Source of the DNA: a virus
Virus record (IMG/VR): IMGVR_UViG_3300045988_154943
Coordinates: 1 to 48,444 of that record
Length of the DNA: 48,444 nt
Strand: one strand, 5' to 3'
Of the stretch, positions 14,517 to 42,026 are shown piece by piece. The stretch's first letter is position 1; each line of letters opens with the position of its first letter. Below the pieces are notes generated by a model. That model made no database searches, was not told the DNA's origin, and saw only the letters and a program-made list of their open reading frames with translations. A program made the position numbers and the translations under genes.

Positions 14517-14729
14517 AAAAATTCCTCCATTCTAAAATAAAAAAGATGTGTATAAGTCTAGTTGCGTTATTGTCACTTGTATATCTTTACTTATTTCACA
14601 TCAATTATATCATAAAATGTATTAAATTCAAAATTGGAGTACCATACCCGAATTGCACGAGTGTCTATTTGATTTGCAGTCAAATCGGCTTACTTCTTGC
14701 CTAATGGTACATATTAGGGAAGTTATTCC

Positions 14730-28515: not shown

Positions 28516-28701
28516 AATATCATCTCCTTTTCACTACAGTAATTTTACGGTTTACCAACCTTGAATTGAGATTTATTTATATCTACATTGATTACGCTCA
28601 ATGTTAAGCACTTATTTGGCACAGGTTCTAGGTTATGCTCCCAGTTCTTTGGTTTTGGAGACCAATGTTTTTCTGATTAAACTAAACCCATAGGTAAGGG
28701 C

Positions 28702-32825: not shown

Positions 32826-32854
32826 ATCATATCATAAAAGCCTCGTTTTGACAA
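32826..32854 (-). promoter_or_regulatory. candidate late promoter TTGTCA-17-TATGAT for terS, -35 overlapping the divergent RusA promoter
   Basis: Minus strand TTGTCAaaacgaggcttttatgaTATGAT; the 13-bp direct repeat TCATAAAAGCCTC occurs twice (32803-32815, 32833-32845). Confidence 0.35.
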
Positions 32855-32897: not shown

Positions 32898-33290
32898 ATG
32901 CGAAATACCCCATTAAAAATCGTTATAGAGGTCATTCCAAGAAGCAAAAAGAACTCACAAGAGATAATATTCAATAAAAAAACTGGCAGAAGAATGGTAA
33001 TTCAAAATAAAAGGTACACAGAATTTGAAAAGGACTGTAAATGGTTCATGCCAAAGTTAGAGAAACCAATTGACTACCCAATTAATTTAAGTTGCCATTT
33101 TTATGTAAATGACGCCAGAAGAAGAGATATAGCAAACTACCTAGAAGCCATACAAGATATTTTAGTTAAATACAAAGTAATAGAAGATGACAACTATAAT
33201 ATAATTGCTTCATTAAATAATTGTAAAATGGAAATAGATAGAATTAACCCACGTTGTGAAATTGAAATAACAAAAAAAGAGACTAATTAA
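32898..33290 (+). CDS. rusA: RusA-family Holliday junction resolvase
   Basis: RRRDIANYLEAIQDILVKYKVIEDDNY parallels E. coli RusA RRDLDNLLKAVLDAL...WEDDSQV catalytic Asp/Lys cluster; 130 aa. Confidence 0.85.
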   Translation: MRNTPLKIVIEVIPRSKKNSQEIIFNKKTGRRMVIQNKRYTEFEKDCKWFMPKLEKPIDYPINLSCHFYVNDARRRDIANYLEAIQDILVKYKVIEDDNYNIIASLNNCKMEIDRINPRCEIEITKKETN

Positions 33291-33303
33291 AAGTCTCTTT
33301 TTC
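33272..33303. terminator. bidirectional rho-independent terminator (AGAGACT/AGTCTCT stem, A-run upstream, T-run downstream)
   Basis: aaaaaaAGAGACTaattaaaAGTCTCTttttc; terminates RusA on the plus strand and the candidate large ncRNA on the minus strand. Confidence 0.7.
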
Positions 33304-34300
33304 TTTGAAACAAGGTTTGTTTCTATAAAAAAAATGAAAAACTAGGAGCATAACCAATTGTACACTCCTTGATAAATTGATTTAGGTATTCCTCACACTA
33401 ATAGAACACAACCAAATTTTCTCAGCCAATAGGAAGTAAAAGTCCTCGTAGGGGGCGACCCTATGTCCTCTTTTACTTTTGGATAACTTTTGCCGTGGGG
33501 CAAAATACCTATAGTAAATCTCTCTTACTCGCTTTCACACACGCTAGGAAATTCTATATTATTTGCGTACCTGCAAACCATAATTAGCATTCTGTCATTT
33601 TCGGATGTAGATTTGTGCTACTCGTACCAGTTTCTAGTGTTATACTCCTGTCGCCAGGTATCAACTACACATTGGTTTATTGGTTTTCCTGCCTAGCCTT
33701 TATGCACCATACATAATAGCATATTCGCAGTGTACTCAGTATATGCTTGTACATACCTTTTCCTGATTACCAACCACTAGTCCTGTGCTTTAAATTCTCT
33801 TATGTTCTACTACTATTATCTCTTTCCACACTTTGTGTGTCTCAACAATAATATTACTATTATCGTACACATAATCCCTCAAAAAATCTCTCTTCTAAGT
33901 AATATGAACGAGATAACATCCTTACCACATTGTGTTGTAGTCTTTCATAAGGTTCTAAATCAACTTGTCAAGGAGCATTCCCTACGACCATAGATAGGGA
34001 ATATACTCTATGTTGAATGTTAATTGTAAGTGCTTACGACATTTTAATAAGCACCATAGAATAATAATAAAGTGTGGATTTGCGCCAACATTTTCTATCT
34101 ACTATATCGAATTGCCTCACTATTTGGCTTCTCTATTATTACTCTATGCTACCTATTAGTAGCACATTATTACTTAAATAATGCCCTAATGGACATCATT
34201 GAGACAATGATATGTATAGTAGAAAGAAGAACCATTGTCTCAATGATGTCCATTAGGTGTCAAATAAGAATACTATGTAAGTTATACCCTTTCGAGTACA
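33300..34300 (-). ncRNA. candidate large (~1 kb) structured non-coding RNA
   Basis: No credible ORF on either strand in a gene-dense genome; visibly GC-enriched relative to flanks; many hairpins including GNRA tetraloops (CCTGgcgaCAGG, tactcGAAAgggta), TTTTGCCgtggGGCAAAA, nested AGTAAAAG...CTTTTACT stem, 24-bp perfect inverted repeat; own promoter at 34307-34335 and terminator at 33272-33303. Confidence 0.5.
34186..34256. repeat. 24-25-bp perfect inverted repeat (long hairpin) with 23-nt loop
   Basis: CTAATGGACATCATTGAGACAATG (34186-34209) and its exact reverse complement (34233-34256). Confidence 0.9.
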
Positions 34301-34306
34301 TATTAA

Positions 34307-34335
34307 GTATATCACAATACTTTTTTATTGTCAAT
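34307..34335 (-). promoter_or_regulatory. promoter TTGACA-17-TATACT driving the ORF-free region
   Basis: Minus strand TTGACAataaaaaagtattgtgaTATACT. Confidence 0.45.
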
Positions 34336-34441
34336 ACAATTTATTTCTTTTAATAATTTAATGCAAAACATAATTAGTTCTTCTTTAGTAAAATTTACTT
34401 TTTTATCAAAATTGCCCTCAAAATGTTCTTTAATAAGCATT

Positions 34442-34723
34442 TTATTCAAGATTTCTATTGCAATATCGTTCATAATTTTTACCTTTCTTTATGTATTTTT
34501 TCAAATTAATGGTATCACTACCATTTAGGAACTCCCAAATCACATCTTTTTGCAATTGGGAACAATAACAATTTGCATAAACAAACCATTTGTACATAGT
34601 TTTGCACTCCAATGTCTCATATAGTCGTTTTATACTAAATGCGTCTCTAACAAAATCTTCATAACTAAAGAATTTCATAGTATCTCTTACAAATTTGCAT
34701 TCCATTATCTCTTCTCTCGTCAT
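34442..34723 (-). CDS. hypothetical protein
   Basis: 93-aa ORF, last gene of the 41.0-34.4 kb operon. Confidence 0.45.
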   Translation of the reverse strand: MTREEIMECKFVRDTMKFFSYEDFVRDAFSIKRLYETLECKTMYKWFVYANCYCSQLQKDVIWEFLNGSDTINLKKYIKKGKNYERYCNRNLE

Positions 34724-35121
34724 AAGTCTATCCTTTCTTTAACGTATTCTCTTCTAATCAATAAATGTCCCTTTTTAGTTCTATCTCTATCATGCTCTCT
34801 TTCAAAATACAATAGCAAGTCTCTAATTTTCTTCAAATTTTCAATATCTACTCTTCTTTTAATGTTTTCATCAATTAATTCGCTTGTTATTAGATAAAAT
34901 ATTTCAGGGTCAACTCTTTCCAGAATATGCAAATAATTGTGTGAAGTGTTTTGCCTCAATATCGCTCCATTTTCAAATGTCATTAGCCCACCATTTTTAT
35001 TCGCTATAATCATATGATGATATGAAAGTTGTTTTGTATTATTAAATGTGTATCCCATTTGGTCGTAGCCTAACTTATTCAATTTAAAAGTCTTTATCAT
35101 TTCTCTAGTGATTTCTTTCAT
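34720..35121 (-). CDS. hypothetical protein
   Basis: 133-aa ORF, overlapping stops and starts. Confidence 0.45.
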   Translation of the reverse strand: MKEITREMIKTFKLNKLGYDQMGYTFNNTKQLSYHHMIIANKNGGLMTFENGAILRQNTSHNYLHILERVDPEIFYLITSELIDENIKRRVDIENLKKIRDLLLYFEREHDRDRTKKGHLLIRREYVKERIDL

Positions 35122-41051: not shown

Positions 41052-41076
41052 TATGCCTCCCTTTAATTATGTCTCT

Positions 41077-41105
41077 ATTATACCTTTTATTATTTATAAT
41101 GTCAA
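41077..41105 (-). promoter_or_regulatory. perfect consensus promoter TTGACA-17-TATAAT for the 41.0-34.4 kb operon
   Basis: Minus strand TTGACAttataaataataaaaggTATAAT, then GGGAGG SD and ATG. Confidence 0.7.
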
Positions 41106-41121
41106 TACATTTATAAACCAC

Positions 41122-41529
41122 AAAAAAACAACCTTTTATGGTTGCTTCAACAAAAACGAAAACCTTTGTATCTTTAATAGATACTGCACTAATGATATAA
41201 ACTAGTATTACCTTTAATGTCGGCTACAGAATAATTTCATAGTCTAGGGTATATATCATCAGTACACTACCTATTTAGATAATGTGAACAACGAATTAAA
41301 AAGATAACATCTAATTAATTCCGAGTAGTCATCCTCGCCTTTACTTCTACTAATCTATTTAGCATAACCAAATGCTTCAAAGTAAATAGTGCCTTATAGA
41401 CACCATATCAAGTAAATATATTACTAGCACCCTAAACTACACTAGGCATTGGTTCTTTAAGACTTTATATACTTACTCAATATGCTGCCTATAGCAGCAC
41501 ACAATTATTTTTTTATAACCTCTCGGTTA
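41122..41529 (-). ncRNA. candidate ~400-nt phage-encoded non-coding RNA between two consensus promoters
   Basis: Upstream perfect promoter (41537-41565), downstream terminator CAACCataaaaGGTTGttttttt (41122-41146); longest minus-strand ORFs are under 20 codons; hairpins GTATCTattaaAGATAC and GCTGCtatagGCAGC. Confidence 0.45.
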
Positions 41530-41536
41530 CATACTC

Positions 41537-41565
41537 TATTATATTACTTCTTTCTTGCTTTGTCA
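41537..41565 (-). promoter_or_regulatory. perfect consensus promoter TTGACA-17-TATAAT
   Basis: Minus strand TTGACAaagcaagaaagaagtaaTATAAT. Confidence 0.65.
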
Positions 41566-41699
41566 ATACGTGATTTCCAAAGTATAAATTTTGGTCGGAG
41601 TTATGACAAGGGGTAACTCAAGGAAAACGCGAACATATAGGTGGTGTGGGGCGTGGTGTTTACTTCCAATATTGATATAATATTGAACCTTAAAAGTGT

Positions 41700-41990
41700 A
41701 AATAAAATGTAAAGTATTTATAGCAAATATTTGTATGAGTAATATCTAATTTAACAAGTGTAACAAATACGCAAATAAAAAAGAATAATGATATAAATAA
41801 TAATACTATAATAATACAATAAACACACTATATATATTATACTATATAAGCGTATGAGTACATAAAAGAGAGTATATAAAAGTAGTATATACACATTTTA
41901 AGGGTATAAATAAGCGTTTTTTGCTTTATATAGTAATAAATAAGTACTATAATACAATAACACTATATAATACCATATAAACCACTTTTA
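41700..41990. repeat. AT-rich block with imperfect ~30-bp direct repeats (tactataat(aa)tacaataa(a)cac(ac)tatata), duplicated short motifs, and a C-rich island
   Basis: Copies at about 41803-41835 and 41944-41975; gtatgagta x2; ataagcgt x2; unusual G-run ggtggtgtggggcgtggtg at 41638-41656. Confidence 0.5.
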
Positions 41991-41993
41991 AGC

Positions 41994-42026
41994 ATAAAAA
42001 AAGACCATTTTACTAGTCTTTTTCTT
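41994..42026 (-). terminator. rho-independent terminator for the 42240..42013 gene
   Basis: AAAGACcattttactaGTCTTT stem-loop followed by a T-run on the minus strand; includes the stop codon. Confidence 0.55.

Follow-up and report, generated by a model that had tools for sequence, protein, structure and literature searches.

ROOL RNA was described in 2017 as an ornate RNA of about 581 nt from cow rumen that is found in phages and prophages, often near tRNAs (Weinberg et al., PMC5737381). By cryo-EM it was found to form a protein-free octameric cage of D4 symmetry and about 28 nm in size, with kissing loops and A-minor contacts as joints and a disordered linker inside (Kretsch et al., 2025; PMC12286853). 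The solved ROOLs, from cow rumen, Enterococcus faecalis and Firmicutes CAG:227, have a flat fold with eight copies per cage (PMC12286853, PMC12515178). A second study reaches the same conclusion on the cage and shows that RNAs attached to the ROOL 3' end by fusion are presented on its outer face with assembly undisturbed (Ling et al., 2025; summarised in PMC12515178). No function is known for the cage of any ROOL (PMC12286853, PMC12515178). GOLLD, like ROOL, is an ornate RNA of large size from phages or prophages, often encoded near tRNAs, and it too builds an RNA-only cage (a 14-mer).

We analyzed a stretch of viral DNA of 48,444 nt, in the following called the window, which carries the phage genes terS, terL, an SPP1-type portal gene and rusA. 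Between rusA and a group of small minus-strand genes starting from 34473 there is a gap of about 1 kb without a credible ORF. A preliminary description of this DNA had reported the gap as an ORF-free, GC-enriched block dense in hairpins, with a TTGACA-17-TATACT promoter on the minus strand and a bidirectional terminator that the convergent rusA also uses. It had proposed a ROOL-type, GOLLD-type or new class of RNA, for which Rfam covariance models and compensatory changes in homologous phages were to be searched. The description of the block was largely confirmed. The longest ORFs within 33300-34340 are one of 68 aa (TTG start, plus strand, inside ROOL) and one of 93 aa (GTG start, plus strand, 34072..34353), and no gene is called in the block in a separate public assembly of the same phage (SRR1761717). 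The phage is also contained in SRR32903647. The GC content is 0.33-0.40 compared to 0.23-0.31 in the flanks. All hairpins named were found on the minus strand, the promoter is present and conserved in the related phage L001, and the terminator hairpin next to rusA was recovered together with a further terminator closer to ROOL. An inverted repeat given as 24 bp is perfect but measures 25 nt. The statement that other gaps in this genome span only tens of nucleotides does not hold, as 41052..42012 is also long and gene-free.

Searching the whole window against Rfam identified the RNA in the block as ROOL. The match covers model positions 1-574 of 574, is not truncated and scores 155.1 bits compared to a gathering score of 99.1 (E 8.9e-33); it was recovered again with permissive filters in 33200-34500. 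In the permissive scan of this interval none of the 4227 models pointed to another Rfam family, the only other signals being sub-gathering noise from miRNA-precursor hairpins, and group I introns, group II introns, RNase P and tmRNA gave no match. The GOLLD model, which we take to be RF01998, matched neither at the gathering score in the whole window nor at E <= 10 in 33200-34500, and GOLLD is unrelated to the window ROOL in sequence and fold. Of the classes proposed earlier, ROOL was thus borne out by the full-length match and by covariation, while GOLLD and a new class were not: the gene-free block is a new copy of a known family. By blastn, sensitive to about 65-70% identity, no GenBank phage matched the whole block, and neither a cultured relative nor an earlier annotation came up.

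The window ROOL resembles the rest of the family in its full-length match, its length (610 nt compared to an average of 581), its covarying multi-junction fold, its unalignable linker and its phage context, and its relatives are of the AT-rich Firmicutes type and the rumen or gut type. It differs from many ROOLs in that no tRNA is closer than 4.7 kb, in a hairpin insertion of 22 nt and in a leader of 324 nt outside the model. The insertion is specific to this copy and is missing in L001 (22-nt deletion).

Relatives were collected from IMG/VR via the terminase and an 18-nt motif common to all copies and confirmed with Rfam, and 11 of them were aligned with MAFFT. When the consensus structure was projected onto the window ROOL, 132 of the 151 Rfam model pairs (87%) were canonical. 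Among the 11 relatives 82.8% of the cells were paired, compared to 40-47% when the partners were slid by 1-3 columns. Two-sided changes were found for 92 of the 151 pairs, none of 500 shuffles reached the observed covariation values, and all 16 pairs of the outermost helix covary. Helices 9, 10, 14, 15, 24 and 25 are poorly paired in the relatives, with the register of the alignment as part of the cause. Alignment columns from about 415 to 497 could not be aligned and have invariant flanks (AGTAGCACAAATC and CCTA..GTGTGAAAG); this central stretch corresponds to the variable linker of the family, as expected. The structure line of the Rfam ROOL model carries no pseudoknot, and the main text of PMC12286853 gives no loop sequences.

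A decayed or unrecognised protein gene in the block can be given next to no probability. Such a gene might be sought in the 93-aa ORF or in several others of 30-68 aa, but the 93-aa ORF is broken in L001 by indels of 13, 6, 23, 20, 1, 34, 1 and 16 nt, frame-breaking indels relative to L001 occur across the block (1, 4, 13, 16, 20, 22, 23 and 34 nt), and each of the six frames contains at least six stops. The substitutions relative to L001 follow no codon phase (13/11/11 in the ROOL core and 34/33/26 in the leader), the public gene calls are empty here, and the ROOL model and its covariation account for the conservation. Protein coding of the block is excluded.

L001 has a terminase 95% identical to that of the window phage and a ROOL with 90% identity. 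Among 13 terminase relatives with upstream flank, ROOL was present in this flank in three (L001, L015 and L002) and 7 kb upstream in a fourth; it is an accessory element of these phages. The sub-lineage of the window ROOL was found in bins of uncultured Bacilli (rabbit gut), uncultured Bacillales and Clostridia (rabbit gut, yak omasum), and a number of its copies (L028, L063, L066, L067, L069, L070, L073 and L075) abut tRNAs. The scan of the genome collection with the 18-mer gave many chance matches, in cyanobacteria and other taxa, and ROOL was present in only 9 of 22 loci.

Table 1. Positions of the RNA elements, signals and neighbouring genes discussed in the text.
Feature	Position	Strand	Basis or details
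ROOL RNA (Rfam RF03087), 610 nt	33976..33367	-	cmscan, whole window against Rfam 15
Copy-specific hairpin insertion in ROOL (UUUUGCC-CCAC-GGCAAAA)	33490..33512	-	insert relative to model
Sigma-70-type promoter TTGACA-17-TATACT with TG extension	34334..34306	-	consensus scan 11/12; predicted
Leader, 324 nt	34300..33977	-	structured, outside ROOL model
Leader hairpin H1 (UGUACUC-GAAA-GGGUAUA)	34300..34283	-	MFE fold; at predicted 5' end
Leader hairpin H2, perfect 25-bp stem, 23-nt loop	34257..34185	-	inverted repeat 34185-34209 / 34233-34257
Leader module 1	34164..34030	-	hairpin A 34164..34147; 18-bp stem (within 34058-34148), 57-nt insert; hairpin B 34054..34030
Leader hairpin H7 (AUUCCCUA..UAGGGAAU), abuts ROOL 5' end	34002..33977	-	MFE fold
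Terminator-like hairpin T1 and U-tract, directly 3' of ROOL	33369..33344	-	
Bidirectional terminator common with convergent rusA	33304..33272	both	
rusA	32898..33290	+	Pfam PF05866, 30.4 bits
Promoter-like site of terS	32854..32826		
Second minus-strand unit	41566..41120	-	in gene-free block 41052..42012
Second-unit promoter TTGACA-17-TATAAT	41566..41538	-	predicted
Second module copy	41500..41389	-	canonical hairpins; 17-bp stem with three G.U pairs
Second-unit terminator	near 41145..41123	-	
tRNAs of the window	28617-28691, 14635-14710		

The ROOL gene is located upstream of rusA, terS and terL (Table 1). From the predicted promoter, a strong one of the housekeeping type, transcription would start near 34300. 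This promoter differs in L001 by one substitution in the spacer, and in the more distant phage L015 the sequence TTGACT-17-TATACT precedes ROOL by about 43 nt. A dedicated promoter is thus usual for ROOL and the long leader is not. The 5' arm of T1 and the 3' strand of the outermost ROOL helix share nucleotides, and the T1 hairpin is kept in L001 with a changed stem (GGGG..CCCC). A precursor of about 950-1030 nt, which would extend from near 34300 to either terminator, is well supported, because the promoter and the hairpins are conserved in L001, the leader covaries and the structure of T1 is kept. The extent given earlier for the large RNA has to be narrowed: that block was about 430 nt longer than ROOL, and the surplus consists of the structured leader and a terminator region of about 95 nt.

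The minus strand of the leader has a folding energy of -112 kcal/mol (z -11.5) compared to -88 kcal/mol (z -6.2) for the complement. Nine leader pairs differ on both sides between the window and L001, and several others changed to G.U. Hairpin H1 has a U.G pair that is U-A in L001, and H7 has one compensatory change from C-G to U-A. For the inverted repeat of H2, the number of such matches expected by chance is 0. The L001 version of H2 has a 26-bp stem with five two-sided compensatory changes, four changes to G.U and a loop of 55 nt, and its G.U pairs are possible only on the minus-strand RNA. Folding energy, compensatory pairs and strand-specific G.U pairs support that the leader is a structure of the minus-strand RNA, and H2 is a candidate site for a double-strand RNase.

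Altogether, we are confident that the block is a self-contained minus-strand ROOL RNA gene of an uncultivated, very AT-rich tailed phage. As a member of the family, its RNA would be expected to form an octameric cage.

The leader contains an element, termed the module, that was also found in many other viral contigs. The 5' part of its consensus is (G)UGCUACC-UUUAU-AGGUAGCAU-W-GAGUAGAUAU and the 3' part, which follows a hypervariable insert of 35-110 nt, is AUAUCUAUUC-W'-AUGGUGCUUAUAAAGCAC; the module has a size of about 130 nt. A gapped exact pattern of the module was present in at least 80 IMG/VR contigs. When a looser pattern left the stem free, the stem sequence was still conserved in 27 of 36 matches. 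We built a covariance model, R1, from ten module copies that were in register and had canonical frames, and the R1 scan found 98 module sites in 95 viral contigs; L116:2219-2346 is an example of a canonical module.

Module copies were aligned by anchors and by the model, as MAFFT misregisters the variable loops. For 89 distinct copies 97% of the cells were paired, compared to 25-51% in shifted controls, in an alignment that is fitted to the model and favours the structure. Two-sided changes were observed for 24 of the 26 pairs. The junction pair W/W' was found as A-U (50 copies), U-A (19), G-C (1) and U.G (1), with three mismatches. The module is a real RNA structure with strong covariation and apparently unannotated. 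No Rfam family matched the window and L069 copies, and no GenBank phage had a DNA match to the canonical module. A catalogue from 2023 holds 8,495 unnamed candidate RNAs from IMG/VR (PMC10690425); it may already include the module, and we claim no priority.

Module 1 of the window has a diverged, fully compensated stem of 18 bp. It scores only 10.5 bits with R1 because its stem sequence diverged through compensatory changes. Since R1 under-scores this copy, its membership does not follow from its own score but from two relatives: the homologue at the corresponding position of L001 reaches 45.3 bits (E 2e-7), and the insert is near-identical to that of the copy in L069, a Clostridia bin from yak omasum (nhmmer E 1e-11).

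The insert is in general not tRNA-like: a T-loop-like motif was present in only 5 of 74 inserts and ARAGORN called no tRNA. An exact copy of the insert motif AGCCAAATAGTGAGGCAAT was not found in IMG/VR. Matches of another motif, ATGGTGCTTATTAAAATG, in viral contigs were mostly chance matches to Hsp70-like coding sequence and were discarded.

ROOL is absent from most module loci. Of 22 ROOL loci, 13-14 have a module within about 300 nt, upstream or downstream of ROOL and in the same orientation. Modules often adjoin tRNAs, share the strand of ROOL and of adjacent tRNAs, and also occur in tandem. In most of the 82 loci analyzed the module lies 0.2-1 kb upstream of terS/terL and on their strand. 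The window holds a second copy in another non-coding unit with its own predicted promoter, in which the module is succeeded by another 270 nt or so of RNA (Table 1). The 3' part of these 270 nt resembles sequences that immediately precede ROOL in L041 and L031, and no GenBank phage had a DNA match to this second RNA locus.

The position of the module relative to the packaging genes bears on two other readings. In the first, the promoter upstream of the leader would be that of the late operon and the module an antitermination RNA like put of HK022, carrying transcription past both terminators into terS/terL and the structural genes, with ROOL and the tRNAs as passengers of a long 5' untranslated region. 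The usual location of the module fits this reading, as do the downstream structural genes of the window, which are all on the minus strand, and the conserved stem sequence, which suggests recognition by a macromolecule. However, two terminators and the oppositely oriented rusA separate ROOL from terS, which has a promoter-like site of its own. Modules are also found downstream of ROOL, the second module of the window has a terminator behind it but no operon, and put-type elements have no counterpart of the hypervariable insert. We consider antitermination quite unlikely.

In the second reading the leader, in particular its 25-bp repeat and the module stem, would act as DNA, as a cos or pac site or as a palindrome bound by protein. 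The leader is found a short way upstream of terS/terL and the module family a few hundred nucleotides before terminase genes, and perfect palindromes are strand-symmetric; indeed R1 gives a score to H2, a perfect hairpin, on either strand. Against this, one G.U pair of the module stem is conserved in 84 of the 89 copies and would, as would the four G.U pairs of H2 in L001, be C.A in a cruciform or on the other strand. Sense matches to the module outscore antisense matches by 15-35 bits, and the minus-strand RNA of the leader folds better by 24 kcal/mol. The common strand with ROOL and tRNAs, the occurrence on either side of ROOL and the tandem copies are also hard to reconcile with a DNA site, and the second module of the window is far from the packaging genes, with its own promoter and terminator. 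A role as DNA is therefore very unlikely.

Two folds of the module can be drawn. In the local fold three helices meet, and hairpins A and B are 96% paired across the copies with strong covariation. In the extended fold the 3' arm of hairpin A and the 5' arm of hairpin B lengthen the central stem to an imperfect duplex of about 30 bp, which is 79% paired across the copies and contains one constant G.G. The extended duplex was found to be lower in energy in 79 of 89 copies, with a median of 5.9 kcal/mol. By these models the module looks bistable, switching between a three-helix form and a long hairpin. Since hairpins A and B covary locally, the long duplex may not be the functional form.

The three-helix form is reminiscent of the packaging RNA of phi29 (prohead RNA, presumably Rfam RF00044). 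Both are phage-encoded, about 120-130 nt long and located beside packaging genes, with a three-helix junction and complementary loops. They differ in that the module has no sequence or model match to the phi29 RNA and ends at the junction instead of at the tip of a helix, and the phages that carry the module have terS and terL, unlike phi29. Loop complementarity was measured by the co-occurrence of variants and with loop boundaries taken from the covariance model. Hairpins A and B have complementary loops, and the complementarity is specific to the partner, with variant apexes co-occurring (Fisher p 6e-5), and the longest Watson-Crick match between them has a mean of 4.96 compared to 4.45 ± 0.08 when partners were shuffled, a value reached in 0 of 1000 shuffles. 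This could mean that the loops pair between molecules, hand in hand as in phi29, giving rings or networks that include the ROOL precursor. Two hairpins that leave one junction without linkers would, from helix geometry, be ill placed to kiss within a molecule, and ROOL itself is assembled through kissing loops (PMC12286853). However, the complementarity follows from the extended hairpin, because the two loops are opposite strands of one helix there, and that hairpin is well paired and in most copies the more stable form. The loop pairs are moreover nearly all A-U, the kinship of the sequences inflates the statistics, and the Rfam model of the phi29 RNA did not match the window and L069 copies. 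Pairing between molecules is decidedly unlikely.

RNase III processes rRNA operons and the early transcripts of phage T7 at flanking stems. The leader resembles these in having duplexes of 25-30 bp that flank a stable structured RNA in a precursor, and in some of the duplexes an internal mismatch or a G.U pair is conserved. The module differs from known RNase III sites in its conserved flanking hairpins, its sequence-conserved stem and its hypervariable insert, none of which such sites require. By analogy, and as the most cautious reading of their function, the leader hairpins most likely serve as processing sites that release mature ROOL. A minus-strand transcript would start at the predicted promoter, run through the leader and the 610-nt ROOL and end at T1 or at the terminator on the rusA side. 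The leader duplexes, that is, the 25 bp of H2 and the module of about 135 nt folded as an imperfect duplex of about 30 bp, would be cut by an endonuclease of the RNase III type. Cleavage in the leader would trim the precursor and release mature ROOL (or tRNAs or the module insert), and eight copies of the mature window ROOL would then join into a hollow cage, as in the solved ROOLs. A further and rather doubtful possibility is that the module, which typically sits in islands of tRNAs and ROOL before terminase genes and has interchangeable inserts, is no passive nuclease site but an undescribed, widespread and switchable adaptor. It would present its variable insert and, where it is transcribed together with ROOL, control the maturation of the ROOL cage, decorate it or link it, in keeping with the display of fused RNAs on the cage shown by Ling et al.

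ROOL is among very few natural RNAs known to build protein-free cages, and one more copy leaves the purpose of the cage unanswered. The locus described here is unusually clean, with a single promoter, a defined leader, ROOL and two terminators at a fixed place between early and packaging genes. ROOL is commonly embedded among copies of the module, and the module marks the region before the packaging genes of phages. If the module directs the processing or assembly of the ROOL precursor, the production and use of ROOL could be approached experimentally through it. If its role is limited to that of a nuclease site, it would still be an unannotated and strongly conserved element that is worth adding to the RNA family databases.

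The ~130-nt RNA element that partly forms the structured leader 5' of ROOL (a large phage RNA, Rfam RF03087) was found to be recurrent, with at least 98 sites in 95 of the loci collected. This module consists of hairpin A, followed by a sequence-conserved stem that encloses a variable insert of 35-110 nt, and then hairpin B. Covariation in the module was strong, one G.U pair was conserved and two competing folds were found. It is mostly located upstream of the terminase genes terS and terL, often adjoining tRNAs or ROOL. No match to the module was found among Rfam families or GenBank phages.

Features of the window and of related loci (prefix L)
Feature	Location	Strand	Remark
Module, window copy	34030-34164	-	~130-nt recurrent phage RNA
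Module, further copies	L116:2219-2346; L069:2707-2834; L069:2905-3042
Leader hairpin	34185-34257	-	Perfect, 25 bp
Counterpart of leader hairpin	L001:3855-3960
Second stand-alone non-coding unit	41120-41566	-
Promoter of second unit	41566..41538	-	TTGACA-17-TATAAT
Module copy 2	41500..41389	-	In second unit
Second module type	~41275..41165	-	In second unit
Terminator of second unit	~41145..41123	-
AT-rich repeats	41780-41990
rusA (RusA-family resolvase)	32898-33290	+
tRNA-Trp-CCA	28617-28691	-	Between portal gene and next gene
tRNA-Cys-GCA	14635-14710	-
Island of 12 tRNAs	L003:7742-8616
133-aa protein	34720-35121	-	HNH-like motif SYHHMII...N...H
Terminase large-subunit ORF	L015:4131-6881		916 aa

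The leader may hold two modules in tandem. The leader hairpin includes the module stem core CAUUGAG...CUCAAUG, and the MFE fold of its counterpart in the near-identical phage L001 has three helices in a module-like arrangement. This evidence is ambiguous, since R1, the covariance model built from ten in-register module copies, gives scores to the hairpin on both strands.

In the second non-coding unit, module copy 2 is followed by ~270 nt of additional structured RNA, within which lies a second module type similar to the sequence immediately upstream of ROOL in L041 and L031. Just upstream of this unit is a very AT-rich stretch of repeated TTATTGTATTAT(T)ATAGTA-like units, which may be an origin of replication or have a regulatory role.

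Four loci (L021, L025, L037, and L039) strongly matched the ROOL profile (nhmmer, E 1e-114 to 1e-145), with the L037 score equal to that of L046, and were missing from the Rfam scans at gathering score. Their absence may stem from filtering or from divergence in their 3' domains.

The rusA gene stands alone on the strand opposite to nearly all other genes, flanked by ROOL and terS and running convergently to the former; L001, L161, and L162 have exactly this arrangement. The tRNA-Trp, also present in L001, has an atypical T-arm and reached no more than 43.8 bits against the Rfam tRNA model. Where the window has this single tRNA, the terminase relative L003 has its tRNA island, which lies downstream of both terL and the portal gene; no ROOL was found in the fetched flank of L003.

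The terminase large-subunit ORF of L015 is longer than that of the window (592 aa) and similarity begins only from residue 159. This suggests an inserted segment, perhaps an intein or fused domain.

The HNH-like protein had no Pfam match at E <= 0.01, and homologues were found near the module in nine loci. HNH proteins encoded beside terminases are a typical feature of cos-type packaging.
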